Shown one piece after another: positions 44,397 through 63,605 of a DNA stretch of 64,000 bases (its first letter is position 1; each line of letters opens with the position of its first letter). The translations under genes and the position numbers were made by a program. Location of the stretch: the IMG/VR virus record IMGVR_UViG_3300013121_000021, one strand, 5' to 3'. Below the pieces are notes generated by a model that was given only the letters and a program-made list of their open reading frames with translations, did no database searches and was not told where the DNA came from. The stretch is from an uncultured virus (IMG/VR IMGVR_UViG_3300013121_000021). Taxonomy: Duplodnaviria > Heunggongvirae > Uroviricota > Caudoviricetes.

Positions 44397-44398
44397 AA

Positions 44399-47908: not shown

Positions 47909-48181
47909 TTATTTCTTCTTTGTTAAATTATAATTATTGATAACCCAACTCATTATATTATAAATACTTGGAGTTTCACCTACTGAATAATATTCTGAGT
48001 TTGTAAATTTTCTTGTTAAACGTAAAGCTAATGCATGTAATTCTGCATCCTTCCTATTATTAAATTCTTCTAAATTACCTTTAACTCGATACTTTATTAT
48101 CTCTTCTATTTCGTCTTGGTTGTTTGGGTTTTGGTTGTTCATTATTAATAGAAGGTAATTTATATATAGTTGCAAATCCAT
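47909..48181 (-). CDS. Hypothetical protein
   Basis: ORF track; start uncertain (possibly 48142). Confidence 0.45.
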   Translation of the reverse strand: MDLQLYINYLLLIMNNQNPNNQDEIEEIIKYRVKGNLEEFNNRKDAELHALALRLTRKFTNSEYYSVGETPSIYNIMSWVINNYNLTKKK

Positions 48182-48512: not shown

Positions 48513-48964
48513 TTTTTATTTTTAAATAACGGCACAACTTTATTATCTTTTTCAGGTTCTATTTCGGATTCTAATTTAGATTCTAATTTAGATTCTATAA
48601 TAGAATTTTTTTTCATATCAAATTGTTTTATTTTCTCTATATCAAATCCTGTTACAAAACCCATATTATTTTCTTTTGAAAATAATGATAAAACATGATT
48701 TGTAGGGAATTCAACATATTGTTCTTTACCTGAAAATCGAGCTTTAAATGAAATTAAATCATCCGTTATTTGTAAATCTACGGCAGCAATAGGATTTATA
48801 TTTAAAATAATTATTCCTTCATTATTTAAATATTGCTGTGGAATATATTGTTGATCTTTACCATAGACAGCTATAAATGGTGTATGATCATTATCTAAAC
48901 ACCAATTTAAAGTTGCCATTAATTGATAAGTTAATAAATTTTTATTTTTACATCTAGGATTCAT
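48509..48964 (-). CDS. sspB: Stringent starvation protein B (ClpXP specificity-enhancing adaptor)
   Basis: W.LDND.TP.I.V...IP.QY...G.IILNI.P.A..DL......ISF.ARFSG...P...V..LF.KEN..G matches the SspB core; acidic tail ending VVPLFKNKK. Confidence 0.85.
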   Translation of the reverse strand: MNPRCKNKNLLTYQLMATLNWCLDNDHTPFIAVYGKDQQYIPQQYLNNEGIIILNINPIAAVDLQITDDLISFKARFSGKEQYVEFPTNHVLSLFSKENNMGFVTGFDIEKIKQFDMKKNSIIESKLESKLESEIEPEKDNKVVPLFKNKK

Positions 48965-49163
48965 TTGTTATTTGATTGTCTCCAAAAAGAAAAATAATTA
49001 TTATTCCTCGTTATTAAATACTTTTTATTATTTTTTTCAAATAATACAAACCCAACATTTCTTATAAAACCGCAATCTAATATTAAACAATGCTTTCCAA
49101 ATTCTGGTGAATCATAATATACTGATTTGTGTAGCATAATTATATCATCCAGATAATAGTTTA

Positions 49164-49385
49164 TTAAGCTTTATTTCCTCGTCCAATAAACCAAGAAAAT
49201 GCTTTAATTATTAATTGATTATCCCACCAATTAGTAATTTCTCTATTAGACTTTTTATCTTTATAGAAAGTTGGTCCTAAGTATTTATGCCATTCCATAA
49301 ATACATGATCACCATTATCCAATCTTAATTTGTAAAATGGATTTATACAAACTGTTGTTATTGAGTTTAATTTTACACAAGTCAT
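49164..49385 (-). CDS. Hypothetical protein
   Basis: 73 aa, ATGA-coupled. Confidence 0.55.
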   Translation of the reverse strand: MTCVKLNSITTVCINPFYKLRLDNGDHVFMEWHKYLGPTFYKDKKSNREITNWWDNQLIIKAFSWFIGRGNKA

Positions 49386-49615
49386 ATCTCCTCCTTTATA
49401 AATTCTTCGATTATTTTTACTAACTGAGTATTAATATCTGGTTTTTGAAAATCTATATCTAATAATTTTTCTGTTAATGATGTTTTTGTTTCTTTAACGG
49501 CAGATTTCCAACAGTGATAAAATTGTTTTGTAAATTGATAAAAATAATTATTAGTATTTTCTATCTTATTTGTTGGGATACCATTTTGTTTTGCCCATAC
49601 TTCAAATTGATTCAT
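49382..49615 (-). CDS. Hypothetical protein
   Basis: 77 aa, ATGA-coupled. Confidence 0.55.
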   Translation of the reverse strand: MNQFEVWAKQNGIPTNKIENTNNYFYQFTKQFYHCWKSAVKETKTSLTEKLLDIDFQKPDINTQLVKIIEEFIKEEI

Positions 49616-50448
49616 AACCCTATTATTTTATGAGAAATATTATCTTTAGAACTATTTTTAATTTTATACATTTCGGCATCAGCTATATCAATTAAATCTT
49701 GTGATAAATAAATTTGATCTACTTTTTCACAATTAATTGATAAAATTCCATAACTACATGATATATTTAATTTTTTAAATTTTATCTTAATTTTATTTCT
49801 TATTCTAGATATTATTTCGCTTGCATTTGATGGAGAAGATTCTACTAATATTATTGCAAATTCATCTCCTCCCATTCTAGCTACAGAATCTATTTTTCTT
49901 ACAGAAGTTTTTAATATTGTTGCGAATTCTTGTAATACTTTATTAGCTTGTATATGTCCTAATTTATCATTAACGTATTTAAATCCATCTATATCTAAAA
50001 ATACAATGGTTAACCATTTTTTATATCTATAACATCTATTTACTTCATTATCTAATAAATAGTTAAAATGATCAATATCATATAATTTTGTTAATGGATC
50101 TTTAATACTTATTTCTTTTATTTTTTCAATTTGTTTAGATATAACTGATAAAATTAAAGGAAATACAATTAGTGAAAATATAATTTGTGAATTATACATT
50201 AATTTTAATTCTTCCATATCCTTTGGAATTATTGGAAAATATATATCATATAATTTTAAAGAAAAAGTTATAATTGAAAGTATTATTAATAATAATCTAT
50301 CTACTATCCAAACACATAATATAAATTCAATAATATAAACTGGACATGGTACTATATAATATGTAAATAAATCAATATATAACGTTAATGATAAAATTGA
50401 TGTTACTATAATTGATTTTATAAAAAAACTACAACAATTTTTAATCAT
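49612..50448 (-). CDS. Membrane-anchored GGDEF (diguanylate cyclase-family) protein
   Basis: Hydrophobic N-terminus; DPLT, DIDGFKYVND.LGH, RxxD I-site (RKID) and RMGGDEF. Confidence 0.9.
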   Translation of the reverse strand: MIKNCCSFFIKSIIVTSILSLTLYIDLFTYYIVPCPVYIIEFILCVWIVDRLLLIILSIITFSLKLYDIYFPIIPKDMEELKLMYNSQIIFSLIVFPLILSVISKQIEKIKEISIKDPLTKLYDIDHFNYLLDNEVNRCYRYKKWLTIVFLDIDGFKYVNDKLGHIQANKVLQEFATILKTSVRKIDSVARMGGDEFAIILVESSPSNASEIISRIRNKIKIKFKKLNISCSYGILSINCEKVDQIYLSQDLIDIADAEMYKIKNSSKDNISHKIIGL

Positions 50449-50632
50449 TTTCTGTTTTTAAATTTTCTTTTATCTTTTCATATTGTTTTACTAATTGAAT
50501 CATTTCACTCTCATTTAATACTAATTTTGGATTTACTATTTCACCATCATTAAAAATCATCCAATAATTATTTTGTGATCCAGTTTCACTAGTTACTAAA
50601 ATATGTCTAAGTTGCATAAAATTAATATTCAA
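50441..50632 (-). CDS. Hypothetical protein
   Basis: 63 aa, overlapping neighbours in the operon. Confidence 0.5.
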   Translation of the reverse strand: MNINFMQLRHILVTSETGSQNNYWMIFNDGEIVNPKLVLNESEMIQLVKQYEKIKENLKTEND

Positions 50633-50939
50633 TACGTGATGAAAGAAAATATATTTTATTTTTACATTGTTTTGCTATTAAAAGATCATCCTCTTGTTTA
50701 AATATAATATTTTTATTTCTCGCAATATCAATTTCTCTTTTTAGGATTTTAGAAACTTCTAACGCGAGATTTTCATTTGTTATAACTGAAATTAAATTTC
50801 CTTGTTTATGTTCTTCGTTAGCCAACCATCCAATTGGGTCATATAAAACTTCAAATAATATTCTGGTGCGTGTTTCACTTTCTGTAACGCGCCATTTTGG
50901 TAATAACTCTATTGAAAAATCATCAATTAAGTATATCAT
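50622..50939 (-). CDS. Hypothetical protein
   Basis: Likely start MIYLIDD. Confidence 0.55.
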   Translation of the reverse strand: MIYLIDDFSIELLPKWRVTESETRTRILFEVLYDPIGWLANEEHKQGNLISVITNENLALEVSKILKREIDIARNKNIIFKQEDDLLIAKQCKNKIYFLSSRIEY

Positions 50940-50963
50940 TACTTTTTTTCCTAAAAAAGAAAT

Positions 50964-51000
50964 ATTCACCGGTACACAATAAATATGTATACCGGTGAAT
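50964..51000 (-). terminator. Terminator-like hairpin after the tasA-like gene
   Basis: ATTCACCGGTA...TACCGGTGAAT stem followed by U-rich sequence on the minus strand. Confidence 0.6.
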
Positions 51001-51008
51001 TTTTATTC

Positions 51009-52016
51009 TTAGGCCGCCTTCTTTTCCCTCTTCGGAGGCTTCTCAAAGATCTCCCTCAAAGTCCTTTGAGGGTGAGTGTACCCCAATTTCACCTGTTCGT
51101 ATCTTCCCTTGAGTGGCAGATTTTCGAATTGTCGCCAATATGTCCACATATCAGCGAGAAATTCCTTGATCATATAACGCACTGCGGCGTTATGCTTATG
51201 ACCTTTGGATTTTCCTTCCCAATTGGGATGCATGTCAAGACGTTGCTTGTAATTATCGTAAACCGTACGATATGGTCCACCCATCTTAATGAAAGATGGA
51301 CCAAGAACTCCAAGCAGTTTGGTTTTAACAAAGGGATTAAACGTAATCCCTTTCGTCTTAACCAGTTCACCTTCCATGTCGATATATTCCTTATCGACCA
51401 AGTGTGCTTTTCGGCGCGAACGCCCTTCCGAGTGGATCACTCCATCATCATCTTCATAGACGACAACGTCCACCCCACAGTACTTGTGAAGCGCAGCGAT
51501 CGAATTACACTTAGTAATATCGATCTCCGACAAAATAACGCCTGCCATTCGCGGTCCAACTCCATGGACATTGACCAAGTAATAATTGTAGAACGGGTAA
51601 TTTACCAATTCTTTAGCTACCAATTCAGCATAGATGTCTTCGGAGGCTCGCATGTGATCAAAAGCTTCGAAGATGCGAATGTCATCTTGCGTTTTCAAAA
51701 GAGTGATTTCCTTATCTTCTTTGTAGTTTTTCGGCAGACGAACCCGACGCTTCGCCATGTCCAATACCTCGTCGGACATCAGGCGGTTTTCAATCTTGAC
51801 TTTCGTCTTGATGTGGTCATACTCTTCCTTGAGGATCTTGAGCAATTTCTTGCTCTTCTCTTCTTGCTCATCCTTGTTTAAGGCGGCATATTGCTCCTCG
51901 GTTAAACCGAGGGCGTTTCTGAAGATTTGTACCAGCCGATTGCCGATACTAATCCTCAATTTCTGTTGGTCGTACATCGTACGAACCAGCATCCCAAGAC
52001 GGGACTTCATACTCAT
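51009..52016 (-). CDS. Nop/IS110-like RNA-binding protein without a nuclease domain (TasA-like TIGR-associated protein)
   Basis: N-terminal helix LVRTMYDQQKLRISIGNRL; VHGVGPRMAGVILSEIDITKCNSIAALHKYCG aligns with the IS110/Nop helical motif (IPGIGP..A..LLAEI......L..YAG); FNPFVKTKL...YDNYKQRL...HKHNAAVRYMIKEFL. No RuvC DEDD or HNH motif. AGAGGA RBS. Confidence 0.8.
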   Translation of the reverse strand: MSMKSRLGMLVRTMYDQQKLRISIGNRLVQIFRNALGLTEEQYAALNKDEQEEKSKKLLKILKEEYDHIKTKVKIENRLMSDEVLDMAKRRVRLPKNYKEDKEITLLKTQDDIRIFEAFDHMRASEDIYAELVAKELVNYPFYNYYLVNVHGVGPRMAGVILSEIDITKCNSIAALHKYCGVDVVVYEDDDGVIHSEGRSRRKAHLVDKEYIDMEGELVKTKGITFNPFVKTKLLGVLGPSFIKMGGPYRTVYDNYKQRLDMHPNWEGKSKGHKHNAAVRYMIKEFLADMWTYWRQFENLPLKGRYEQVKLGYTHPQRTLREIFEKPPKREKKAA

Positions 52017-52085
52017 TTTTGTTTCCTCTTATAACTTTGTGAGACTTTTTAACAAAAAAGAAAGATAACATCTTCCTTTTCTATT

Positions 52086-52100
52086 ATATAATATCTATAT
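52086..52100 (-). promoter_or_regulatory. Promoter-like motif ATATAGATATTATAT upstream of the tasA-like gene
   Basis: Exact 15-mer about 70 nt upstream of the start codon. Confidence 0.6.
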
Positions 52101-52104
52101 AAAA

Positions 52105-52485
52105 TTATTGTAAAATTAGCTCTAAATCTAGGTCTGTATTATAACCTGGATTTCGTCTACCTTGTTTATCCCAAGTAAGTTGATAATCATCATCCACAAT
52201 CCCAGTTAACATAATTTTTTGATTATTCTTCATTGTAAACTTAGTTAATTGTGTGATTATTTTTCCAGATTTAGTTCTAACTATATACTTTTTACTTAAT
52301 GCTTTATTAATATCAAATTCTAAATCATCAATACTATCAATTAAACTATTAATTCGTTCTAAACGAATTGCACCAGCTTCTGCACCTTGTGATGTTTCCC
52401 ACCATCCATCAATAGAGCTAGTTTCACATTCATCTATTCCTTTAAGAATTTCATTTATTTTATCTTTTAGATATTGTTTGTTCAT
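52105..52485 (-). CDS. Hypothetical phage protein
   Basis: GWWETS.GA..G motif; FDI.KAL....V.T..G C-terminal module. Confidence 0.6.
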   Translation of the reverse strand: MNKQYLKDKINEILKGIDECETSSIDGWWETSQGAEAGAIRLERINSLIDSIDDLEFDINKALSKKYIVRTKSGKIITQLTKFTMKNNQKIMLTGIVDDDYQLTWDKQGRRNPGYNTDLDLELILQ

Positions 52486-52513
52486 ATAGATTTATTATAT
52501 AAAAAGAAAAAAT

Positions 52514-52543
52514 AAACCAGATCAGATAATACTGATCTGGTTT
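52514..52543 (-). terminator. Intrinsic terminator
   Basis: AAACCAGATCAG/CTGATCTGGTTT stem followed by a U-tract on the minus strand. Confidence 0.65.
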
Positions 52544-52703
52544 CGTCGGGATATATTGAAAACTAATTGAAATTTCAAATATTTTGTCAATTAAACGAGG
52601 AGGAGAACTCTTCAACTAACAACTCAAAAATAGAAATATTAGTTTTTTTCCGACAAGTTGTATATTCATTAACAACTTGTTAAATTATATCTATATATTT
52701 TTC

Positions 52704-53009
52704 TTAAAACCCCAAATCGTCTAAAGATAAAATATGTTTTGATATTATGTCATATGGAAAAGAAGAAGATCCATATCTTCTATTTGTATATTCAGGAATA
52801 GAAACTATTACTTCTATTCTTGTAGAAGTATGATAATTAATTCCAACATAGGTAGAATCTTTACTAAAATTTATTTTAATATATTTTTTAACGGCGTTTA
52901 TAATATCTTTTAAAGGAATATCATTATATGATTTTGGTAAATCATAAATTGGTTGTTTTGTTGGTTGTTCTGGAACGGCAAAGAACATTAATTGTGAAAT
53001 ATCAATCAT
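52704..53009 (-). CDS. Hypothetical protein
   Basis: ATGA-coupled to the helicase gene. Confidence 0.55.
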   Translation of the reverse strand: MIDISQLMFFAVPEQPTKQPIYDLPKSYNDIPLKDIINAVKKYIKINFSKDSTYVGINYHTSTRIEVIVSIPEYTNRRYGSSSFPYDIISKHILSLDDLGF

Positions 53010-54391
53010 GACTTATGTTTATATCCATATGGAAAAAGATAATCTACTAATACTAATGAAGTCTTACATCTGGTAATAGCAGTATATAACCATTTATCAC
53101 TATATTGTTTAAACATCATTGATTCATTAAGAATCAATCCTTTATTTGCTTCGCTTCCTTGTGCTTTATGAACAGTTAATGCTCTACCAAAAGAAACTTC
53201 TACTATTTTATTAAAAGGATAACTTTCCCAATTAATTTTATACTTTCTTAAAAATTCAGTTTGTATATAAGGAAATTTTGGTAATTTATTTGAACGCCTA
53301 AATTTTCTTATAGTAGAATAACATGACATTAAAATTTGATATTCATCTTCATCTTGTTCAGATAAATAATGTTTAAAAATTGGTTTTATTAATAATGATC
53401 CTCCTTCTTCATTTTTAACAAACATTGTTGGAATATTTGTCCAATTTATTTTTTTATTTAAAGGATATGATGAATAATCATCTTGAACTATTAACATATC
53501 AGAATTATAAATATCTAAATCATAGTTATTTTTCCAAACAATTAAAGTTTCATCTTTAACGGGAAATCTATTAGTATTATATCCTTTTAATTGTCTATAA
53601 TAATCATTTATTCGTTTTACACTTCTATTAGAACCGCATAAAATAAGATCTGAATCTAAAACTAAATCTTCTCTATGTTTATCTAATTGTATTGATTTTA
53701 AATATTTATAAGCTGGTAATTGATAATTTTCAAAATAATTTAATTTACCACCATCTCTTACTTTATTAGCAGCAAATAATATAGGACTATCTTGTGCTTG
53801 TCTATGTATTTCTGTTAATATAAAGTTTGGATCTTTTAAAACGGAAAAATTTAAACCGTATATTTTTTCTTCATCTTTAGATAAAATAGGAGGTAATTGA
53901 AAATTATCTCCAATATATAATATTGGTAATCCTACTTCTACCAAATCAATATGAATAGATGGAGTTATCATTGAACTCTCATCTACTATTAATAAATCAT
54001 GCTCGCTTTTAATTTCTTCTACATTTTTTCTTATAAATTCAATTTCATTTGAATCAGAAGTTTTAACTTCATACAATAAATTATGAATTGTTTTTGCTTT
54101 TGTTACACCTTTCTTTTGAAGTATTTTTTTAGCTTTATTTGTAAATGCTATAACCGCAGGTTGAACTCCAAATGTATTCTCAGTGCTATTATTACATTTT
54201 TTATCAATTTTAATTGCTTCAGTTTGATATTTTTTATATTCAGATATAATATAATTTATAAGATATGATTTGCCAGTACCAGCATTTCCAACCAAAGAAA
54301 AATATTTTTTTAATTTGTTTTTAGGATCAAAATTAATTTTCCATTGTGAAAAATTATCATATGCTTCTTGTTGCTGATCTGTTAGTTTCAT
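53006..54391 (-). CDS. RecD/Dda-like superfamily 1B DNA helicase
   Basis: Walker A GNAGTGKS, AFTNKA, TIH, IVDESSM, IGDNFQLPP, LTEIHRQ, ALTVHKAQGSE, LYTAITR. Confidence 0.9.
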   Translation of the reverse strand: MKLTDQQQEAYDNFSQWKINFDPKNKLKKYFSLVGNAGTGKSYLINYIISEYKKYQTEAIKIDKKCNNSTENTFGVQPAVIAFTNKAKKILQKKGVTKAKTIHNLLYEVKTSDSNEIEFIRKNVEEIKSEHDLLIVDESSMITPSIHIDLVEVGLPILYIGDNFQLPPILSKDEEKIYGLNFSVLKDPNFILTEIHRQAQDSPILFAANKVRDGGKLNYFENYQLPAYKYLKSIQLDKHREDLVLDSDLILCGSNRSVKRINDYYRQLKGYNTNRFPVKDETLIVWKNNYDLDIYNSDMLIVQDDYSSYPLNKKINWTNIPTMFVKNEEGGSLLIKPIFKHYLSEQDEDEYQILMSCYSTIRKFRRSNKLPKFPYIQTEFLRKYKINWESYPFNKIVEVSFGRALTVHKAQGSEANKGLILNESMMFKQYSDKWLYTAITRCKTSLVLVDYLFPYGYKHKS

Positions 54392-54458
54392 TTTATATAT
54401 TAAATTATGAAGAAAAAATTTAGGGCTATAAAAATTATAACCCTAAATTAATTAATTA

Positions 54459-54821
54459 TTATACTTCGAATATTGGAGTTGGTTTTAATTTTTCAAAAAC
54501 GCTCTCAATATATGTTAATGGAGTATTGTTGTCAAATTTGGCAATAATTTGACCTAAATGTCCATCTTTTCGAAGAAACATTTTTTTCTCCGATTGATTA
54601 TAAGCGAACATATAAGTCTTTCCATTAATTGTCAACCAAACTCTCGATCGCGTCCGTCCACATTGTGATTGCCAAACTTCAAAAGGAACACCGCGATCTT
54701 GTTTCCATGTTGCATGTCCTAACAAAGTAGGAATAATATTTCTAATTGATGGGACATGATGATTTACTGCAGATTTTCCATAATCAAAAAAATCGCGGAG
54801 ATCAAAAGTTTTTACTTTCAT
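54459..54821 (-). CDS. Protein resembling the integron cassette family VCH_CASS14
   Basis: HH......I..L.G...WK.D...VW..INGK.Y.F.YN...FDN.TPL..I...F..L pattern, recognised from memory. Confidence 0.55.
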   Translation of the reverse strand: MKVKTFDLRDFFDYGKSAVNHHVPSIRNIIPTLLGHATWKQDRGVPFEVWQSQCGRTRSRVWLTINGKTYMFAYNQSEKKMFLRKDGHLGQIIAKFDNNTPLTYIESVFEKLKPTPIFEV

Positions 54822-54855
54822 TCTAACAACCTCTTGAGGTTTGGTTCATAGGACA

Positions 54856-54870
54856 ATATAATATCTATAT
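54856..54870 (-). promoter_or_regulatory. Promoter-like motif ATATAGATATTATAT
   Basis: Exact copy upstream of 54821. Confidence 0.6.
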
Positions 54871-54921
54871 AAAAACTAAAAAAATCTCAGAAATCCATTC
54901 TGAGATTTAAATTTTTAAATG

Positions 54922-55242
54922 TTAATGAGCAAATATACCCAAAATGGGTATATGCTGCATTATCCCCAAATATGGGGTATTGTTATACTTCGCCAACTGG
55001 CGTTTCTTCCTTTCGAGACGCATTTCCATATCAACCAATTGCATCTGCCGTTCGTATTGAATCAACTGATCTTCCGTGATCTGAGCTTGGAACTGTCCAC
55101 GTGTACTATTCAAGTACGCTGTGTCAGAGCCAGCCCCTATTGATGAAATACTGCTACCCGGACGGGTAACAGCACAACCACTTATTGATACTGCTCCAAA
55201 TGCTAGGAGCAGTATCAGCAACCAAGTAATTAACTTGTTCAT
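54922..55242 (-). CDS. Putative lipoprotein
   Basis: GAGGAG RBS; MNKLITWLLILLLAFGAVSISGC lipobox-like signal. Confidence 0.65.
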   Translation of the reverse strand: MNKLITWLLILLLAFGAVSISGCAVTRPGSSISSIGAGSDTAYLNSTRGQFQAQITEDQLIQYERQMQLVDMEMRLERKKRQLAKYNNTPYLGIMQHIPILGIFAH

Positions 55243-55253
55243 GATATTACTCC

Positions 55254-55679
55254 TCATTTTGGAACAGGAGGTGTATTCGGAGGTAACCATGGCGGATAAT
55301 ACGGAATCATTCCGCCACCGCCCATACCACCGAACATACCACCGAAACCACCATAAGGCACAACGACCGGATTATTAGGCTTGGTGATATTGTATCCCCA
55401 AGCATTGGTTTCGACTTGCATCCTGCGAGCTTCGTTTTCCGTTTGTTGGTCTAATAAGTAACTCATCCTGTCCATATTACGACTTTGAACTGCATTCCAT
55501 TGCGCTACCGCCGCAGTGGCGGTAGAGATTCTCACTTCCTGTGCGTTCGGCACAGGAGTTTGAAAGCACCCAAAAAGTGCTATAGTCGTTAAGAACAACC
55601 CAATCCATAGAACAAATCTCACCATCCCTGGTAAGATATTAATCTCCTTGCGGAGATCATTGATAAAAGTATTATTCAT
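55254..55679 (-). CDS. Putative lipoprotein with Gly/Pro-rich tail
   Basis: AGGAG RBS; hydrophobic stretch ending ALFGC. Confidence 0.65.
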   Translation of the reverse strand: MNNTFINDLRKEINILPGMVRFVLWIGLFLTTIALFGCFQTPVPNAQEVRISTATAAVAQWNAVQSRNMDRMSYLLDQQTENEARRMQVETNAWGYNITKPNNPVVVPYGGFGGMFGGMGGGGMIPYYPPWLPPNTPPVPK

Positions 55680-55718
55680 TTGAATCTCCTAAGATATTAT
55701 TCACATTTCTGTGTTATT

Positions 55719-55733
55719 ATATAATATCTATAT
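55719..55733 (-). promoter_or_regulatory. Promoter-like motif ATATAGATATTATAT
   Basis: Exact copy upstream of 55679. Confidence 0.6.
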
Positions 55734-55748
55734 GAAAATTCTTGAATT

Positions 55749-56348
55749 TTAACGCAAAAAATTGGGTTTAAATCCTTTCCGATTTAAATAATCTAATGTA
55801 TTTTTAACTACTTTACTATCAACATTATGATTTTTTATTTCTTTAACTAATCTATTAATAATAGCAATTAAATCTTCTATTTGATTATCTTTAGTTTTAA
55901 TAGTATTTTTATCTAAATCGACTCTCATTATACGTTCATGTAATGCTGCTTCTTTCCAAGTTTCAAATCCATCTGGACCTTGAAACTCTATTTTTAACTT
56001 TTCTAATTGAATATTAAGTTCAAGATTTTCTTTTCTTAACTTTTCTAATTGAACATTAAGTTCAATATTTTCATTATTTAATTTTTCAGCTCTTCTTTGA
56101 GCTATTTCCATACCAATTGAAGAACTTTCTAACAATTTTGTCCACTTAGATAAATCTCCTAATTTATTTTCAAATTCATTTAACGCATCTCTTATTCCTT
56201 TATTAAATTCATCAAAATCAATTTGAGAATCGCAAAGTATTCTTAATTCATCAATTGTTTTTTCTTTTCTAAATAATTCACCTAATGCGTAATCATATCC
56301 TTTAATATATTTTTGTCTCGTCCTGTCTTTAAAATATTTTTTAAGCAT
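55749..56348 (-). CDS. Coiled-coil hypothetical protein
   Basis: Internal repeat ENxELNxQLEKL; GPDGFETWKEAA..ER motif. Confidence 0.6.
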   Translation of the reverse strand: MLKKYFKDRTRQKYIKGYDYALGELFRKEKTIDELRILCDSQIDFDEFNKGIRDALNEFENKLGDLSKWTKLLESSSIGMEIAQRRAEKLNNENIELNVQLEKLRKENLELNIQLEKLKIEFQGPDGFETWKEAALHERIMRVDLDKNTIKTKDNQIEDLIAIINRLVKEIKNHNVDSKVVKNTLDYLNRKGFKPNFLR

Positions 56349-56916
56349 TATTTAATTCATTAGTGATAAAATTATTTAATTCATCATATTGAATAGTTGA
56401 GATTATCGGATTAGTAATAGGGATTTCTGCATAATATTTTTGATATATTTCAAATAATTTAGGAAGTTTATCTTTTAATTGATTTGTAGTATTAATAGTT
56501 TTTAAAGTTTTTTCTAATTCAAGTTTAAGATTTTTTTTCTCTTCAATAGTAAATTCATATTGATCTTCATTTTCAATATATCTTGAAAGATATAATTCAA
56601 CATTTACTTTGTAAAGTTCTGGAGTTTCCATTGGAGAAAAATATGCAATTCTTATATTAGTTCCCCATGGTTTATAATCACTAAATTTTACTTCAATATA
56701 TTTTTCATTATATTTAATAGAACATTTTGAAATAACTGAAGTAAACCAAGTTGGGAATCTTTTTATTTCATGTAAATTATAAGTATCTATAATTAATTCA
56801 TAAATTTGATCACCAATTCTTGTTAATTCAGAATCTATTTCCTTTAATGAAGTTTGATAAATTAAATCTAAAGTTTTAGATATTAAACAATTTTTGATAT
56901 GGTTTGAAAGTTTCAT
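56341..56916 (-). CDS. Hypothetical protein (possibly Nmad5-like)
   Basis: MKLS..IK..L.. start and TINT..QL....P C-terminal pattern; weak. Confidence 0.45.
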   Translation of the reverse strand: MKLSNHIKNCLISKTLDLIYQTSLKEIDSELTRIGDQIYELIIDTYNLHEIKRFPTWFTSVISKCSIKYNEKYIEVKFSDYKPWGTNIRIAYFSPMETPELYKVNVELYLSRYIENEDQYEFTIEEKKNLKLELEKTLKTINTTNQLKDKLPKLFEIYQKYYAEIPITNPIISTIQYDELNNFITNELNNA

Positions 56917-56922
56917 AATATT

Positions 56923-57096
56923 TCAATAAAGAATTGGATACTCAGTTTTAGAGTCATCTTTTGTAAGCCAAGTAAGAGCTGCAACTATACCTTCTTCATA
57001 AGACATAGCATGAAATCTTGTTCCTTCTTTATCCATAATATCATTTGCTTCATCAATTAATTTATTAATTTCTTCTTCAGTACGTTTAATACTCAT
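56923..57096 (-). CDS. Small hypothetical protein (57 aa, not in ORF track)
   Basis: MSIKRTEEEINKLIDEA...MSYEEGIVAALTWL...; fills the operon gap. Confidence 0.6.
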   Translation of the reverse strand: MSIKRTEEEINKLIDEANDIMDKEGTRFHAMSYEEGIVAALTWLTKDDSKTEYPILY

Positions 57097-57106
57097 ATAA
57101 TTATCT

Positions 57107-57379
57107 TTAATATTTTTCTATATCTTCTTCATCATAAACTAATTCATATGTATGATTACATCCAGTGATTTGTATAATTGACCTATCATCTAAATGTAAT
57201 CTTTCTATTATTTTAGAAAGTATTTCTTTTAAATTTTCATTTTCTTGTCTTAATAAATCTAATCTACCTTCTATATCACTTCCACATAAAAGTGAATTAA
57301 ATTCTGTTGAAAGATCTATTAAATCTTTTATTGATACTTCTTTTATATTATTAAGTTCATATTTTTTTCTTATTTTCAT
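57107..57379 (-). CDS. Hypothetical protein
   Basis: 90 aa, ATGA-coupled. Confidence 0.55.
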   Translation of the reverse strand: MKIRKKYELNNIKEVSIKDLIDLSTEFNSLLCGSDIEGRLDLLRQENENLKEILSKIIERLHLDDRSIIQITGCNHTYELVYDEEDIEKY

Positions 57380-57696
57380 AATAATCTTAATATATAAGTT
57401 TCTTTTAAATATTGATCTGTTATAAAATCTAATAAATATCTAATTATAGCAGTATTAATATATTTTGGATTTCTAGTTTGTCGTTGTAATAGATGAATAG
57501 TAAATAATATAAATTCATCTGAACTTTCAAATTCTGTTTCTAAAAAATATGGTAATTTATATGAAGTAAATCCTTCACCTATTAATTGAATTATAAAATG
57601 ATTTTGTGCTTTTTTTATAACTTTATTTTTTTCAAATTGAATCTCAGTAAAAATAGTTATGTCGTAGTTGTCCAAAAGAATCTTAATCACATACAT
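57376..57696 (-). CDS. Tandem paralogue family member 9 (C-terminal E-Y-x-x-L-K-Y-like motif)
   Basis: Ends LDFITDQYLKETYILRLL. Confidence 0.6.
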   Translation of the reverse strand: MYVIKILLDNYDITIFTEIQFEKNKVIKKAQNHFIIQLIGEGFTSYKLPYFLETEFESSDEFILFTIHLLQRQTRNPKYINTAIIRYLLDFITDQYLKETYILRLL

Positions 57697-57961
57697 ACAT
57701 AAAAAAATAATACTCTTTTTTAAACTGATCTGGTATAAAATCTATTATATAATTTATTACATCTTTAATACATTCATCATAAAAGTATTCTTTTTTAATG
57801 TATTTTATTATTTTTAATATAAATTCTTCTACTAAATATTCTTTTTTATTAAGAGTTCCCGGTATTACTAAAGCAGCTACGAACGGCGCTTGTGGCCATA
57901 TTGATATATTAATTATTTTTGTTTCTATTTCTGAATAAATAGTGATATCAGTATTAAACAT
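57683..57961 (-). CDS. Tandem paralogue family member 8
   Basis: Ends IDFIPDQFKKEYYFFMYVCD. Confidence 0.6.
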   Translation of the reverse strand: MFNTDITIYSEIETKIINISIWPQAPFVAALVIPGTLNKKEYLVEEFILKIIKYIKKEYFYDECIKDVINYIIDFIPDQFKKEYYFFMYVCD

Positions 57962-58292
57962 ATAATAATTTATAATACTCCTTTATATCTTGATTATCTA
58001 ATATTTCTAAAAAATAATTAAATAATATGTCATAATTAATATCATTTCTAATTGATATAAGTATCATAAAATTTTGATTACAAAACTCTTTAAGTAAAAA
58101 AAATGGATCTTTTTTAATTATATCTATAAATTTATCAATATTAAATATAAGTTGCACTTTATTTTTTCTATTTATTTTCCGAATTTTAATCTTTATTTTT
58201 TCATCATCAATAATTTCAAATATTATATTAATTTTTATAGATTTATTCTTTATAGTATTAAATTTATTTACTTTAATAGATATTTCAAGCAT
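57954..58292 (-). CDS. Tandem paralogue family member 7
   Basis: Ends NQDIKEYYKLLYV. Confidence 0.6.
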   Translation of the reverse strand: MLEISIKVNKFNTIKNKSIKINIIFEIIDDEKIKIKIRKINRKNKVQLIFNIDKFIDIIKKDPFFLLKEFCNQNFMILISIRNDINYDILFNYFLEILDNQDIKEYYKLLYV

Positions 58293-58644
58293 ATTTTAAT
58301 ATATAATATTCTTTTAATAATGGGTCATCTATTATATTAAAAAAATAATATCTAAAATTATCACATATAATATCTGAAAAAATTAAATCATTTTGATCGC
58401 AAAAAAACTTTGGTATAAAATATGGTTTATCTTCTAAATTATCTAAAACCCATTCAATTGTCGAAAAGAATTCAACTGGTTTATAATTATCACAATGAAT
58501 TTTAAAATTTAACATATCTGAACTATTTTTTTCAATAATAACATTTAATTCTAAATAGTTTAGAGCTATTGATGAACTTAAAATATTTTGACTTAGATTT
58601 GAAGAATCATCTACTGATATAATACTAACACCAATTTTAAACAT
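58285..58644 (-). CDS. Tandem paralogue family member 6
   Basis: Ends DPLLKEYYILKYA. Confidence 0.6.
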   Translation of the reverse strand: MFKIGVSIISVDDSSNLSQNILSSSIALNYLELNVIIEKNSSDMLNFKIHCDNYKPVEFFSTIEWVLDNLEDKPYFIPKFFCDQNDLIFSDIICDNFRYYFFNIIDDPLLKEYYILKYA

Positions 58645-58990
58645 ATTTTAACCTTAAATATTCTTGAGTATATTTATTTTGTATAAAATTCATTAAATGT
58701 AGCATTATTTCTTTCTTTCCTTCATCTGTTATGTTTAAATTATTTGGAAAATAAACATAATCTATTAATTGTAATATAATTTCATCTGATTCTACTCTAG
58801 AACATAATTTTTTTATGTTTTGTTTTCTTCTTTTTATAGAAGATAAATTTAATAAATGTACTTTTGGTAATTGATGAGTAAAATCATATATTATTACTGT
58901 TTGATATTTATTATTTTTACTAAGTTTCGAATAAATTGTAATTGGTTTAAATAATTCTTCTGATTTAAATTCATAAAATTCAGTAGTCAT
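58637..58990 (-). CDS. Tandem paralogue family member 5
   Basis: Ends NKYTQEYLRLKYV. Confidence 0.6.
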   Translation of the reverse strand: MTTEFYEFKSEELFKPITIYSKLSKNNKYQTVIIYDFTHQLPKVHLLNLSSIKRRKQNIKKLCSRVESDEIILQLIDYVYFPNNLNITDEGKKEIMLHLMNFIQNKYTQEYLRLKYV

Positions 58991-59355
58991 AAATATTTTA
59001 ACTTTAAATATTCACGTTCATGGTTATCTGGATAAAAAGATATCAAAAACTGAACGATATGTTTTCTATCTTCATCATTATTATTTATATCTATTATTTT
59101 TTTAATAAAACTTTCTAATTTCTTTATATTTTTAAACTCTTTCTTTTCTATTCCATAAGCATGTGCTTGAGAATAAGTAGTATCATAAATTATAATATGT
59201 TTACTTTCTACCATAGAAAAAATTGTAATTGGAGATATAATTATACTTGAATCAATAGAAAAATCATAATGCATACGGAATAAATGTTTTGGTAAAACAC
59301 CTAACGGCCCAGTATAAGTTATTGGAAAGTTATGTATTTCTGTGCTAAGTTTCAT
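58987..59355 (-). CDS. Tandem paralogue family member 4
   Basis: Ends DNHEREYLKLKYL. Confidence 0.6.
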   Translation of the reverse strand: MKLSTEIHNFPITYTGPLGVLPKHLFRMHYDFSIDSSIIISPITIFSMVESKHIIIYDTTYSQAHAYGIEKKEFKNIKKLESFIKKIIDINNNDEDRKHIVQFLISFYPDNHEREYLKLKYL

Positions 59356-59654
59356 ATATATTTTAACTTTAAATATTCGCGTTCATTTATATCTTTAATA
59401 AAATCTAATATATATAATATAATTTCTTTTTTATTATTTTGCACATATGTATAATCAATAAATTTTAATGTTTTTTCTATTAATTTTTTTAATTTTTTAT
59501 CATTTGTTTGTTCATATAATTCTAATTGATACGTATATGATTCTGGTTTTCGAATAGACAAATCCCATATACTTAATCTTTTAAGATTATAATTATGGTT
59601 ATTATTTGAAAAAACTAATACACTTTTTTGTTTAGTTAAAATAATATTTAACAT
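59352..59654 (-). CDS. Tandem paralogue family member 3
   Basis: Ends DINEREYLKLKYI. Confidence 0.6.
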   Translation of the reverse strand: MLNIILTKQKSVLVFSNNNHNYNLKRLSIWDLSIRKPESYTYQLELYEQTNDKKLKKLIEKTLKFIDYTYVQNNKKEIILYILDFIKDINEREYLKLKYI

Positions 59655-59995
59655 TATATATACTTTAACTTTAAATATTCTTTAAAAAAAGGATCTAATG
59701 AATATTGGATTACTTGTTCTATTGCTGGATTACATAAATGAGAACTTCTAATGTATAATTTTAAAGATTGAATTGTTTTTTCTATTACTTCATTTGAAGT
59801 ACTTTTTTCTACTTCATTTGAACCAAATTTAAATAAATATTGAAAATTATGAGAAATTGGAGTATGTGTTTTTTCAAATTCATCTTCAACATCATGAAAA
59901 AACATTCTCATTGTTAAATTTACTTTAATAAATTTATTACTATCGAACGGCGAATATATTGAAACTTCTAAACTAAATGGATGTTTTGCTATCAT
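59654..59995 (-). CDS. Tandem paralogue family member 2
   Basis: Ends DPFFKEYLKLKYI. Confidence 0.6.
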   Translation of the reverse strand: MIAKHPFSLEVSIYSPFDSNKFIKVNLTMRMFFHDVEDEFEKTHTPISHNFQYLFKFGSNEVEKSTSNEVIEKTIQSLKLYIRSSHLCNPAIEQVIQYSLDPFFKEYLKLKYI

Positions 59996-60348
59996 ATATA
60001 TTTTAATTTATAAAATTCTTTAATATCTTGATTATAAATTAATTCAATTAAAAATTTTATAACATAATCATGATGAACACTTCTTGAAAATATAAATGAA
60101 AAGAATAAATTATTATCTTTAGGATCAATTTCTTCTACTATATCTATCATATTTATAGTATCTATTAATAATTTATCCATATTATTATATTCTAATATAG
60201 TTTTAGTATTATAACTTAGAATATGTAAAGTTCTTTCAAAAGAAAACATTAAATAAATTATTGTAGCTCCTCTTTTTATTTCATTTTCTTTTACATTAAA
60301 TCCCACCATAGAATAAAATTCTATTCTAGGAAAATTATTATCTATCAT
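59992..60348 (-). CDS. Tandem paralogue family member 1
   Basis: Ends NQDIKEFYKLKYI. Confidence 0.6.
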   Translation of the reverse strand: MIDNNFPRIEFYSMVGFNVKENEIKRGATIIYLMFSFERTLHILSYNTKTILEYNNMDKLLIDTINMIDIVEEIDPKDNNLFFSFIFSRSVHHDYVIKFLIELIYNQDIKEFYKLKYI

Positions 60349-60353
60349 AAAGT

Positions 60354-60384
60354 AAAAAAGCTACTGAAGCTAAATTCAGTAGCT
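60354..60384 (-). terminator. Intrinsic terminator closing the array transcript
   Basis: AGCTACTGAA/TTCAGTAGCT 10-bp stem followed by a U-tract on the minus strand. Confidence 0.7.
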
Positions 60385-60392
60385 GTATTTAA

Positions 60393-60503
60393 TTATTTTT
60401 TAATAAAGAGTGCTTCCAATATTTTATATACTGAAAGTAATCCTATACCAACTAAAACTAATCCAGAAACTTCTTTTACTGTTTTGTACTTATCTTCTTT
60501 CAT
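60393..60503 (-). CDS. 36-aa single-transmembrane peptide (not in ORF track)
   Basis: MKEDKYKTVKEVSGLVLVGIGLLSVYKILEALFIKK; lies between the array and the terminator. Confidence 0.5.
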   Translation of the reverse strand: MKEDKYKTVKEVSGLVLVGIGLLSVYKILEALFIKK

Positions 60504-60541
60504 AATAAAAATTTAATGTGGTTGGGACAGATTCCCCATTA

Positions 60542-62736
60542 TGATAAAATTAAGGGTTTAGTATCTATTCAATCACTTTGTTAAAATTCGTGTCCATATT
60601 TCTATTCGAGCAGTATGTTAAAATCGTCCACCATGTAACTATTTTAAGAAGAGTGTTAAAATTTAACTCTTTGTATCTATTTGACAACCGTGTTAAAATC
60701 AGTCTTAATATAACTGATTAACAGTTCTGTTAAAATTTCATTTTCAGTTTTTGATACTGCTTGTTGTTAAAATACGCTCTTCTATTTCTGATATACGGTC
60801 TTGTTAAAATTCCCGCCGGTATTTCTGATAGACTGTCTTGTTAAAATCGTACTCAATGAGTCTTTTTTCATCTCGTGTTAAAATAGAATTGTGTAAGTCT
60901 ATTTACATTTATTGTTAAAATTCGTATATCTAAATCTGATCATACGAAGTGTTAAACTTGTTTCTGATGTATCTATTAATCTTAGATGTTAAAATCAATA
61001 TCGATGATTCTAATTGCCGTAGGTGTTAAAATAAATTCGCTTATTTCTACTTTTGGCAATTGTTAAAATTCATCGGTCTGTTTCTGTTTGGCCTAATTGT
61101 TAAAATCGGGTCCTTTGTTTCTAATTCGAATCCCTGTTAAAATAGAACAGTATGTTTCTGATTTTGATCAATGTTAAAATACACACCACTATTTCTATTT
61201 TGACGTAGTGTTAAAATTACAACTTCTGTTTCTAATAGTAATTCTTGTTAAAATACTTTGTAATGTATTTGTTTGGTTTCGATGTTAAAATTGGCACACT
61301 TGTATTCTAATCAAAATCCCTGTTAAAATTTGCCTTATTGTTTCTAATACCACATAGCGTTAAAATTTACACCTTTGTTTCTGATTCGGGTCAGTGTTAA
61401 AATTTCTCCTTTTATTCCTGATCAAGATGTTTGTTAAAATTCGTATCTTTGTTTCTGATAAGAGGACGTGTTAAAATAAGCGCCTTTATTTCTGATTTAA
61501 AATTATGTTAAAATTTTACTTCATGTTTCTATTAAATAATATTGTTTAAATAAATTCAAGAATTTCTGATTCGCGATAATGTTAAAATCACTTTTCGTAT
61601 TTCTGATGGAGTCTCATGTTAAAATTGTGTGCCATATTTCTGATCTGCGCGCTTGTTAAAATCCAACCCTTTACTTCTGGTTATGGGCGTTGTTAAAATT
61701 GGCTTTTTTATTTCTATTCATGGGAGGTGTTAAAATGCGCCTCATTATTTCTGATCCACATGCTTGTTAAAATTCGTCAGAATATTTCTGATCTGGTTCA
61801 GTGTTAAAATCATCACCTATATTTTTGATCCGGCCGAATGTTAAAATCAGGCCCTTTATTTCTGATCAATATTAATGTTAAAATGGAAGCTCGTGTTTCT
61901 ATTCGTCATCATTGTTAAAATTCTCCTCATTATTTCTGATCAATTTTAATGTTAAAATCCGCCAACCTTATTTCTGATTGTTCATGCTGTTAAAATAAGT
62001 TCATCTATTTCTAATCTACGCCAGTGTTAAAATTCTCAGCATTATTTCTGATCACCTCTGCCGTTAAAATACCGATTGTTATTTCTGATTCGATTTTTTG
62101 TTAAAATGACTGGCCCTATTTCTGATCGGGCCGAATGTTAAAATAACCTGCTTTATTTCTATTTGGGGGAGGTGTTAAAATACGGAACGTTATTTCCGAT
62201 CCAACATCATGTTAAAATAACTGACCTTATTTCTAATCATTCATCCTGTTAAAATAACCAAATTTATTTCTGATTGCTAATTGTGTTAAAATAGAGATTT
62301 ATATTTCTGATTATTTATATTGTTAAAATATTCCACACTATTTCTGATTGAGCCCGATGTTAAAATTAGCACCTTTATTTCTGATCAATATCAATGTTAA
62401 AATAATGAGCTCTATTTCTGATCGGGCCGAATGTTAAAATCGGCTTTTTTATTTCTATTTGCGGCAGTTGTTAAAATTTATCCTCGTATTTCTGATCAAT
62501 ATGTTCGTTAAAATACCGATTGTTATTTCTGATTCGATTTTTTGTTAAAATATTTCCGCATATTTCTGATTAATACTTCTGTTAAAATTAGCGACACTAT
62601 TTCTGATCGAATCAAATGTTAAAATCCACCGCACTATTTCTGATCTAAGAACTTGTTAAAATCGGCTTCGATATTTCTGATTATTCATCTTGTTAAAATA
62701 CCTGTTGCTATTTCTGATTTGAGTTCGTGTTAAATT
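60542..62736 (-). ncRNA. TIGR-like dual-repeat guide-RNA array: 59 units of 37 nt (edge repeat, 9-nt spacer, loop repeat, 9-nt spacer)
   Basis: Plus-strand consensus TGTTAAAAT-N9-T(A/G)TTTCT(GA/AA/AT)T-N9. 60 edge repeats from 60542 to 62728; period 37 except three 38-nt units (starting 60616, 61283, 61950). Strand inferred from the promoter motif at 62768 and the degeneration gradient. Confidence 0.85.
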
Positions 62737-62767
62737 AGAAAAAAATTTAAAAAATCTTTTCTATAAA

Positions 62768-62782
62768 ATATTATATCTATAT
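62768..62782 (-). promoter_or_regulatory. Promoter-like motif ATATAGATATAATAT in the array leader
   Basis: About 31 nt from the best-conserved end of the array, pointing into it. Confidence 0.6.
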
Positions 62783-62879
62783 CAAATAGTATAAAAATTA
62801 ATCGGTAAAAACCCACCCAAATAATCAATACTTAATATTAATTATTTGGGTAAGTATAAAAATAGGTCGGTAAAAAAAC

Positions 62880-63460
62880 CAATCCTATACTTCAATATTT
62901 AATAGATTTTTTATGCTTCCGCGTCTATTAAATATAAATTTTTCGCTTTAATTATCGGCACTTTCCTTTTATTTTTGTATTTAAACCGATACAAATTCGG
63001 GTTTCAACGGATTATCATAGAGTTTTATATAAAAACTATTATACTTATCCTTGCTGTGGTACTCTCGTCTTCAACCGATACCCCACTATCCACAACTCTT
63101 TCATATCTCATACATTCCTATGTACTTCATATAACTAGTGTCATTTTTCAACGCACAACTTTGACGTGCTAGCCTCTACTCAGTAACTTTCCCGGATATT
63201 TTCTTCTCTAGGTAGACGAATCCCCTAGTTAAGTACTTTTAGCTGCTATTTAAGACTTCCGCGCCATAGAATACTTCTATCCGTCCTACTTATTACCTTT
63301 CCGCGCTCTCTCATGTAGCTACGTAGACCCTTCCCCTATATTTTAGTCCTTGCTTTGCGTTACAGTTTATCTTTGCACATCCTCAATGGCTGTGGGATAT
63401 AAACTTTCGCCCAGTTTTAATTCCGCGCGCTACGCTGGAACAACCGTTGAACGGTCACCT
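62880..63460 (-). ncRNA. Candidate large structured non-coding RNA
   Basis: GC-elevated with no convincing ORF; promoter-motif variant at 63461-63475; 8-bp long-range complementarity 63003-63010/63444-63451; repeated GCGCGGAA and TAGGGGA-N3-GTCTAC motifs. Confidence 0.45.
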
Positions 63461-63605
63461 CAATAATTTCTATATATAATGTGACCAAACCCAAAAATTA
63501 TACTTAAGTAACCTAAATGCTATTTTTTATACTAATACTAAAAATGTATAAATGATATATTGTACTTTCTGTTACTAACATATTTTTTTAAAACACTAGT
63601 ATAAT

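Follow-up and report, generated by a model that had tools for sequence, protein, structure and literature searches.

The 64,000-nt stretch of DNA analysed here (in what follows, the window) belongs to an uncultured virus of the class Caudoviricetes, IMG/VR record IMGVR_UViG_3300013121_000021, and carries near its end a tandem array in which two short repeats, an edge and a loop, alternate with two 9-nt spacers. Our main finding is that the guides encoded by this array are reused: one whole guide unit occurs twice, one half-guide occurs with two different partners, and closely similar spacers are found well above the number expected. Taken together, this excess of similarity, the repeat variants that move along with the copies and the recombinant structures seen in two related arrays lead us to prefer an account in which guides are copied and recombined at both the edge and the loop, and then altered by point mutation. 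In other words, we consider it rather probable that this is the guide array of a phage-borne TIGR-TasA system (TIGR stands for tandem interspaced guide RNA, and Tas for a protein associated with TIGR), that its reuse came about through copying at the DNA level, and that the content of guanine and cytosine (GC) in its spacers is the usual composition of this family. A preliminary description of the window, made from its letters alone, had proposed that guides become diverse as they are duplicated, mutated and recombined at the repeats, and this proposal is borne out by the same three kinds of evidence.

Results

Recurrence of whole guides and of single spacers

Written on the plus strand, each unit consists of T+GTTAAAAT (the edge, 9 nt), nine variable nucleotides (plus-strand spacer A), TATTTCTGAT (the loop, 10 nt) and nine further variable nucleotides (plus-strand spacer B). 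The column profile built from the 56 units of exactly 37 nt has conserved columns at 37+1-8 and 18-27 and variable ones, almost devoid of information, at 9-17 and 28-36, with a compositional bias at columns 9, 15 and 28; the earlier definition of the unit as edge-spacer-loop-spacer, including the assignment of edge and loop, is therefore correct. The other 3 of the 59 units are 38 nt long, two of them having a 10-nt spacer and one an 11-nt loop.

The duplicated unit reads CGTTAAAAT, ACCGATTGT, TATTTCTGAT, TCGATTTTT, TGTTAAAAT on the plus strand and is the same in both copies over 46 nt (62062-62107 and 62506-62551, Table 1), beyond which the bases are unlike on both sides; the units that flank the two copies are unrelated to each other. 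As had been noticed before, the identity extends to a rare variant of the edge. Namely, the C that produces CGTTAAAAT is present at only 3 of the 56 ends of 37-nt units, and two of these three precede the copies of the duplicate. In the minus-strand reading, which we prefer for reasons given below, the copied tract spans both edges including the last base of the downstream one, and must therefore have been made at the level of the DNA or of the precursor; after processing in mid-edge, that last base would fall to the next guide RNA (tigRNA), so the copy does not stem from a mature guide. What is more, the copying of a single unit to a place 12 units away is as expected of a short conversion tract, and not of one unequal crossover. 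We also considered one ancient duplication of a block of 12 units: four half-spacer pairs with at most 2 mismatches lie at this offset, most units so paired are unrelated, and the candidate was set aside as weak.

Single spacers recur as well. The plus-strand spacer B of units 62100 and 62396 is in both cases CGGGCCGAA, its partners being GACTGGCCC and AATGAGCTC, and unit 61803 holds CCGGCCGAA, one mismatch away; all of this agrees with what had been described. The two-unit segments that start with these units differ at 5+0+5+3 = 13 of their 36 spacer positions, which makes them the closest of all 1380 pairs of two-unit segments, where 26.05 +/- 2.83 of 36 positions differ. One half has 0 of 9 differences and stands among halves with 5, 5 and 3; it may have been converted in an event of its own, or been kept by selection. 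The series of related spacers that had been listed are present too, and one of them can be extended: the CAAT series, comprising CAATATTAA, CAATTTTAA, CAATATCAA and CAATATGTT, gains CAAGATGTT (unit 61396) as a fifth member, and thus runs through units 61396, 61840, 61914, 62359 and 62470. Furthermore, TGGCTTTTT and CGGCTTTTT are 1 position apart and CATGGGAGG and TGGGGGAGG 3 positions. Of the seven closest plus-strand B pairs, six have both members in that half of the array, from position 61581 upwards, whose repeats are well conserved.

Table 1. Positions of the array, its reused guides and associated features in the window
Feature	Position	Strand	Remark
Dual-repeat TIGR array	60543..62736	-	59 units, 37-nt period
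Duplicated guide unit, first copy with both flanking edges	62062..62107	-	46-nt identity
Duplicated guide unit, second copy, 12 units from the first	62506..62551	-	46-nt identity
CCGGCCGAA, one mismatch from CGGGCCGAA, in unit 61803	61830..61838	-
Two-unit segment with CGGGCCGAA (62127-62135), then a rare ...CTATT-loop unit	62100..62173	-
Two-unit segment with CGGGCCGAA (62423-62431), then a ...CTATT-loop unit	62396..62469	-
Ten-unit stretch, local maximum of spacer GC	61581..61950	-	spacers 93/180 G+C
Terminator-like hairpin just upstream of the array, ending the preceding transcription unit	62812..62854	-	20-pair stem, then TTTTT
ORF of 36 codons for a small hydrophobic peptide, after the last array unit and before the minus-strand terminator-like hairpin	60393-60503	-
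Terminator-like hairpin with T-run	60359..60384	-	about 160 nt past the last degenerate unit
tasA-type gene, 335 aa, Nop-domain TIGR-associated protein	51009..52016	-	sequence and fold matches

Similarity in excess of chance

In order to put a figure on the similarity, each spacer column was permuted 2000 times among the 57 units with 9+9-nt spacers, a procedure that keeps the positional composition. The preliminary description had held spacer similarity to be greater than random, and for the plus-strand B spacers and for the complete 18-nt guides this is what we find (Table 2); for instance, the seven B pairs with at most one mismatch compare with 0.32 expected, a number that no shuffle reached. 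Reverse-complement relations between spacer halves were at the level of the null, and reuse by tiling or palindromes was thus discarded.

Table 2. Similar pairs of spacers and guides in the array and in 2000 column-preserving shuffles
Measure	Observed	Expected	Shuffles reaching the observed number
Plus-strand B pairs, identical	2	0.01	0/2000
Plus-strand B pairs, <=1 mismatch	7	0.32	0/2000
Plus-strand B pairs, <=2 mismatches	12	3.7	0/2000
18-nt guides, <=4 mismatches	3	0.02	0/2000
18-nt guides, <=6 mismatches	8	1.04	0/2000
18-nt guides, <=7 mismatches	15	4.97	1/2000
Plus-strand A pairs, <=1 mismatch	2	0.4	131/2000

An independent view of the array comes from other samples. The stretch is present in sludge and digester metagenomes of several studies (activated sludge, digester, sludge), and we compared region 59500-63500 of the window with four runs, X1-X4, from four studies of 2019-2024. 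All array pieces that fit at >=99% do so with 0 differences, over about 1000 nt in X2, about 580 nt in X3 and 167 nt in X4, and likewise in X1, where one contig of 1016 nt (62301-63316) covers the second copies of both reuse events. No contig of the four runs spans 62046-62179, where the first copies lie, so these rest on the window's own assembly. Loose contig ends in run X1 (at 60971 and 61407) show the GTTAAAAT edge and, among spacers unlike those of the window, a ...CTGAT loop; hence another array with repeats of this family, probably belonging to a related phage, co-occurs there. Certain contig joints (e.g. 60995 to 62761) were left aside, their sides being only 21-30 nt long or of low likeness; they probably stem from further arrays that share the edge repeat.

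One could argue that the similarities are mere coincidences among short 9-mers with biased columns (9, 15 and 28), or that the duplicate is an artefact of short-read assembly, the more so as the first copies lie in the interval that the contigs of the four runs leave uncovered. We regard this as very improbable. Namely, for several measures none of the 2000 shuffles that preserve the columns, and with them their bias, matched the observed number, the four flanks of the two copies all differ, the second copies sit inside a single contig without any difference, and the same kind of reuse is found in 15 of 48 independent arrays, to which we now turn.

Reuse in related arrays

Searches with single-protein patterns gave no close relatives; alignment-based scans did find relatives. 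Arrays with a period of 36 or 37 nt are present at 128 of 160 related loci, and 80 distinct arrays could be parsed. In the 65 related arrays with at least 8 units, some of them redundant, there are 49 pairs of identical half-spacers against 0.2 expected and 82 pairs with at most 1 mismatch against 5.4, with reuse in 22 of the 65. A non-redundant set was obtained by removing arrays that share >=30% of their guides and by excluding nine arrays without the CGAG edge motif, which left 48 arrays with 665 units and 4751 within-array pairs. Half-spacer reuse occurs in 15 of these 48 arrays. Identity extends to the whole guide in 6 pairs; 7 others share A and differ in B, and 12 share B and differ in A; in 13 of the 19 re-partnered pairs the partner differs at 4 positions or more.

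The repeats that accompany the copied spacers are of particular relevance. A non-consensus loop or downstream edge is shared by 7 of the 25 pairs with an identical half and by 176 of the 4726 other pairs (3.7%), which corresponds to a binomial p of 2.6e-5 for pairs that are not fully independent. In addition, two arrays display recombinant structures directly. At L122 (6482-6666) there is a tandem duplication of 74 nt, both breakpoints of which lie in loops, with a new A/B combination at the junction, and the array at L104 contains a trio of guides of the form A1B1 / A1B2 / A2B2.

Beyond the relatives, the edge-N9-loop pattern has 40 single matches and no array in IMG/VR, and megablast of positions 41000-60500 of the window against a phage collection gave no match. 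As a side observation, the repeats most like those of the window in composition among the relatives are found in a distant one (L198:1258-2360, Tas 35% identical), which has an AT-rich array with a 35-nt period (ATTAAACA / ATTGAAACA).

Guides and their possible targets

Does the reuse reflect the targets of the guides? For self-targets, we scanned with the 57 guides that have 9+9-nt spacers, allowing gaps of 0-2 and both possible geometries, given that the cut is placed 3' of the paired base in one passage of Faure et al. (PMC12045711) and 5' of it in a different one. Outside the array the window comprises 62 kb (the phage contig being 159 kb), and here no site with 0 or 1 mismatch was found, and the sites with 2-5 mismatches were as numerous as for shuffled guides. 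The earlier expectation that targets do not lie mainly within the phage itself accordingly stands for the window. A comparison of guide pairs with databases had also been suggested. Of this, two scans of IMG/VR were run, with the two CGGGCCGAA guides only, in one geometry and with a gap of 0-2 nt; they returned 3 hits and 1 hit, at chance level, in unrelated contigs of 57-69% GC that have nothing in common beyond the motif, and yielded no convincing target. Motifs of 18 nt are expected to match collections of the size of IMG/VR by chance, and the same point about large collections is made in the Discussion of a recent preprint (10.64898/2026.09.09.750476).

With these results at hand, one may consider that the reused half-spacers were taken up or selected independently from related targets, be they allelic loci or sites with a conserved 9-bp half, such that the array mirrors its targets. 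The near-identical series (CAAT, or CGGGCCGAA and CCGGCCGAA) do resemble variants of one site, the absence of any difference in CGGGCCGAA while its neighbours differ at 5, 5 and 3 of 9 positions fits selection on that half, and the natural targets of TIGR systems, given as not known in the field in the Discussion of the same preprint, leave room for uptake driven by targets. However, independent uptake does not predict that rare repeat variants travel with the copied spacers, as they do both here and in the relatives, nor does it account for the 74-nt duplication and the guide trio, which are recombinant structures. Moreover, the IMG/VR hits of the CGGGCCGAA guides all lie in unrelated contigs, and between this array and the 665 guides of the related arrays no guides are shared beyond chance. 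We therefore judge independent uptake to be unlikely, and copying within the array remains our preferred explanation.

Orientation and anatomy of the array

The preliminary description had read the array on the plus strand; the evidence favours the minus strand, which is most likely the strand that is read. Three observations support this. Firstly, the closest relatives (Tas 44-48% identical; L121-L123 and L041) have their arrays directly beside tas and in the orientation of tas, with a 37-nt unit made of edge AGCGAGCCA and loop A[TAC]CAGAAACA, and the latter is almost the same as the loop of our array on the minus strand, ATCAGAAATA. Secondly, the spacers are rich in purines on this strand (a fraction of 0.566, vs 0.434 on the plus strand), as are those of the related arrays in the orientation of tas (0.591 +/- 0.038, exceeding 0.5 in 65 of 66 arrays). 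Thirdly, minus-strand terminator-like hairpins bracket the array (Table 1). In the minus-strand reading, the spacers A and B of the earlier description are swapped and reverse-complemented, and the order within the unit becomes edge ATTTTAACA, spacer A (9 nt), loop ATCAGAAATA and spacer B (9 nt), where both repeats begin with AT and both end with A[CT]A, as is characteristic of dual-repeat TIGR arrays, whose edge and loop share short terminal motifs (box D / box C) that covary. Upstream of the array there is an ORF-free stretch (open reading frame, ORF) of about 580 nt, 62900-63480, whose GC content of 0.31-0.44 compares with about 0.2 around it; nothing in Rfam matches it, and neither strand has an unusual folding energy (z -1.2 and -0.7).

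The array shows what defines a dual-repeat array: two alternating repeats of 8-12 nt, two spacers of about 9 nt and a unit of about 36 nt. A degenerate pattern search of the whole window gave 59 matches, 56 of them within the array, against 2.9 in shuffles, and detected no second array; no ORF of at least 60 aa runs across the array. The number of repeat mismatches increases towards the low-coordinate end, which is the 3' end (Spearman rho -0.66, p 1.4e-8). Namely, in the last quarter, at the 62.7-kb end, 12 of 17 units have perfect repeats, and at the 60.5-kb end the mean is 3.15 mismatches per unit. Rfam and tRNA scans gave no match.

Spacer composition

The earlier count of 93 G+C among the 180 spacer bases of the ten units from 61581 to 61914 is exact, and over all 1064 spacer bases the GC content amounts to 44.1%, as compared with 28.9% for the window. 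From this it had been concluded that the spacers target non-self DNA of higher GC. This conclusion is not supported by the comparison with 59 related arrays (at least 8 units and at least 2 kb of flank), in which the spacer GC is 0.42 +/- 0.045 across flanks that range from 0.35 to 0.56 (slope 0.31, r 0.36), the spacers being poorer in GC than their flanks in 48 of 59. Base by base, the minus-strand spacers (A.305, C.180, G.260, T.254) can likewise be set beside those of the pooled relatives (A.345, C.171, G.250, T.233). In other words, 44% is the usual composition of this guide family and stands out only because the phage has 29% GC; as the spacer GC is constant whatever the GC of the flanks, it says nothing on the composition of the targets. 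Such uniformity of guides across genomes of very different GC is a caution against reading target composition from spacer GC in general.

Copying of the spacers from foreign DNA of higher GC, i.e. from a host or a competing element, is an explanation that the difference between 44.1% and 28.9% and the GC-rich ten units would suggest, and the self-target scan, with no match at 0-1 mismatch in 62 kb and counts at 2-5 mismatches equal to those of shuffled guides, is compatible with it. We nevertheless hold it to be quite improbable. The spacer GC of the relatives stays the same at any flank GC and is mostly below it; the strand-specific excess of purines in 65 of 66 relatives would not result from random capture of duplex DNA; and the spacer GC is lower where the repeats are degenerate (0.417, 0.381, 0.51 and 0.454 by quarter of the array), as expected of selection on working guides, with old units drifting towards the composition of the genome. 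The two spacers of a guide would pair with opposite strands of the DNA, yet both are rich in purines on the RNA strand; capturing duplex DNA without bias could not have given rise to this, and selection on the guide is indicated. The spacer composition is thus most likely held by selection on the guide or on its 9-bp hybrid. RNA-DNA hybrids in which the RNA is rich in purines are more stable, which would matter for hybrids of 9 bp and is a possible reason for the purine excess.

The Tas protein and the neighbouring genes

The array and the tasA-type gene share a strand, with the gene 8.5 kb further downstream. Sequence matches of its product in the PDB are TasR (9mty_A, E 1.2e-11) and TasH (21kl_A, E 1.8e-9), over residues 114-315 only, and in a Pfam scan of 72 ORFs it was the only relevant one, through a weak match to PF02371, the C-terminal family of IS110; no HNH or RuvC family was found in it by Pfam at E<=0.01. 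An AlphaFold2 model built from 28 homologues has a mean pLDDT (predicted local distance difference test) of 87.4 and predicts an N-terminus (residues 1-145) that consists of helices only. The best folds for the model are the cryo-electron-microscopy structures of TasH (9w04) and TasR (9mty), with E from 1e-8 to 1e-7, followed by the IS621/IS110 recombinases and, far behind, by archaeal Nop5. Given the helical N-terminus of about 145 residues and the lack of an HNH or RuvC family, we take the product to be a nuclease-less protein of the TasA type. About 55 homologues were found in a large protein collection; identity to any protein found is 36-59%, the nearest being 59% identical. Y306 is invariant in all 28 aligned relatives, and a histidine follows KLG in the consensus (H315 here); this stretch aligns with the C-terminal region of TasH that bears the tigRNA-processing dyad.

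The Pfam scan detected no other Tas-like protein in the window, no cas1, cas2 or any other cas gene, and no L7Ae or fibrillarin family. All ORFs between tasA and the array (52016-60543) are encoded on the minus strand and comprise a gene for a UvrD/RecD-like helicase (53006-54391) and about twenty small ones. If the mining of loci is restricted to flanks of 5 kb, as in the Methods of Faure et al. (PMC12045711), the array would be missed.

As for the rest of the window, the phage encodes three RCC1-repeat proteins, which account for 150-nt tandem repeats, as well as a 2621-aa protein with Laminin_G_3 domains, a GGDEF diguanylate cyclase and an SspB-like protein; jointly, these genes lie at 1952-8432, 26066-33931, 49612-50448 and 48509-48964. 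A small protein resembling crAss001_48 is encoded at 19100-19327.

Discussion

How would such an array work and change? We infer that transcription runs along the minus strand, starting at about 62.8 kb and ending at the terminator-like hairpin (60384-60359), and that the transcript would be cut within the edges into tigRNAs of about 37 nt, each made of half an edge, spacer A, the loop AUCAGAAAUA, spacer B and half an edge. Each of these would be loaded by a dimer of the Nop-domain protein encoded at 51009-52016(-), and the two 9-nt spacers would pair with opposite strands of one 18-bp DNA site, in keeping with the targeting by tandem spacers that Faure et al. (PMC12045711) describe. As the protein has no nuclease domain, the expected outcome, by analogy with published work on other TasA proteins, would be binding or repression and not cleavage. 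Copying may proceed by short-tract gene conversion, by template switching or by unequal recombination between the 9-10-nt repeats. In this scheme, a copied tract bounded by two edges would yield a copy of a whole guide, such as the 46-nt duplicate, a tract ending in a loop would copy a single spacer and create a chimeric guide with a new partner, and point mutations would give rise to the series with one and two mismatches. New or homogenised units would stand at the promoter-proximal end, and old units would decay distally.

The pattern of reuse suggests that arrays grow by internal copying rather than by capture of foreign DNA. The broader idea, that no spacer-capture machinery is needed since guides arise inside the array, by conversion or unequal recombination at the repeats that copies whole guides or re-partners halves combinatorially, point mutation that samples nearby target sequences, selection for purine-rich guides of about 42% GC and distal decay, we advance only tentatively. 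If it is true, this array and the 15 of 48 related ones are snapshots of the internal generation of guides, and the question of how TIGR arrays emerge and expand would have an answer. TIGR-Tas systems were first described in 2025 (PMC12045711); the Discussion of that paper by Faure et al. calls the gain of spacers by TIGR arrays unknown, with no associated adaptation genes, and the Discussion of a preprint of September 2026 (10.64898/2026.09.09.750476) raises the same question and likewise notes no adaptation genes. In the searchable texts on TIGR arrays, including two preprints of 2026, duplication within arrays was not found, and their supplements may hold cases. The copying of whole guides and half-guides together with repeat variants therefore offers a concrete and testable route for the growth of arrays and for new guide pairs.

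That said, a number of points weigh against our interpretation. The excess of similar pairs among the plus-strand A spacers, i.e. the true B spacers, is weak by itself, with 131 of 2000 shuffles reaching it, and the related guide pairs number about ten among 57 units; since most spacers are without a detectable relative, copying and mutation need not account for every one of them. The two CGGGCCGAA units with different partners could be diverged copies of a two-unit duplication instead of recombinants at the loop. Units with the ...CTATT loop resemble one another slightly more than randomly drawn units do (p 0.05), so the association of this loop with related spacers is marginal. The array was stable across the metagenomic runs, where neither ongoing turnover nor a rapid turnover as in CRISPR arrays (short palindromic repeats, clustered and regularly interspaced) is seen, and the first copies, in 62046-62179, lie outside contig coverage. 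Finally, the gene and the array are 8.5 kb apart, and their pairing would follow by analogy, from the logic of the family only.

Relation to other guide systems

Let us first consider box C/D RNAs, to which TIGR systems are likened by Faure et al. (PMC12045711) on account of the Nop-domain dimer and of a guide RNA with two short segments bounded by paired motifs. The structures of Nop5 and Nop56/58 (3id5, 3nvi, 3pla) are weak fold matches of the window's protein, with E of about 1-2. Unlike clusters of box C/D small (nucleolar) RNAs, the array has tightly spaced tandem units and no RUGAUGA box, and no L7Ae or fibrillarin family accompanies it in the window. The unit consensus contains no TGATGA on either strand and has CTGA on the plus strand only. 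In short, the features of a box C/D sRNA, namely the kink-turns (K-turns) formed by RUGAUGA and CUGA and the partners L7Ae and fibrillarin, are not seen, nor is there an Rfam match.

With CRISPR arrays, the array shares the layout of repeats and spacers, as well as conserved repeats at one end and degenerate ones at the other, the latter being the 3' end, as in CRISPR trailers. Another shared trait is that spacers can be duplicated by recombination between repeats. A CRISPR-Cas locus, however, comprises cas genes as well as an array in which one repeat, about 25-36 nt long, alternates with single spacers that are similarly long, and what we find here is different on each count: repeats of 9-10 nt and of two alternating kinds, spacers split into 9+9 nt, and no cas gene in the window. 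Moreover, recombination at the inner repeat can give half-guides new partners, something that has no counterpart in CRISPR. That spacers can be lost by recombination between repeats, a further point in common, is stated in the Discussion of Faure et al. (PMC12045711).

Among the Tas proteins of known structure, TasH, from the Salicola phage CGphi29, and TasR, from an archaeon of the Thermoproteota, represented by PDB entries 9w04, 21kl and 9mty, match the window's protein best over the Nop and coiled-coil part. With TasH it can be aligned in the region of the processing dyad, where it has a conserved Y and H near the C-terminus; in contrast to both TasH and TasR, it has neither HNH nor RuvC, and its N-terminal 110 residues are helical only. 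The arrays of TasR have the repeat motifs UG...CCA in the account of Faure et al. (PMC12045711), and the motifs of the present array differ from these.

The closest parallels are the TIGR-TasA systems, for which we take as comparators FpTIGR of Flavonifractor plautii (Faure et al. 2025, PMC12045711) and MbTasA, a TasA that acts as a repressor according to the preprint 10.64898/2026.09.09.750476. In common with these, the system has two short alternating repeats with two 9-nt spacers per unit, an edge and a loop with the same first and last bases, a Nop-domain protein without a nuclease, and a location in a phage. Dual-repeat TIGR arrays end in a truncated edge with a rho-independent terminator behind it; here, a terminator-like hairpin stands about 160 nt beyond the last, degenerate unit, with the 36-codon ORF in between. 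It departs from them in its unit of 37 nt with a 10-nt loop, as in its closest relatives, against 36 nt, and in its very AT-rich repeats, which end in ACA/ATA rather than in CCA. What is more, 59 units compare with the 5 to 15 most often found in TIGR arrays, and the distance of 8.5 kb from tas exceeds the 5-kb flanks that were mined, as given by Faure et al. (PMC12045711) for both. All in all, the system is a divergent representative of TIGR-TasA, unusual in the length of its array, in its AT-rich repeats and in its distance from tas.

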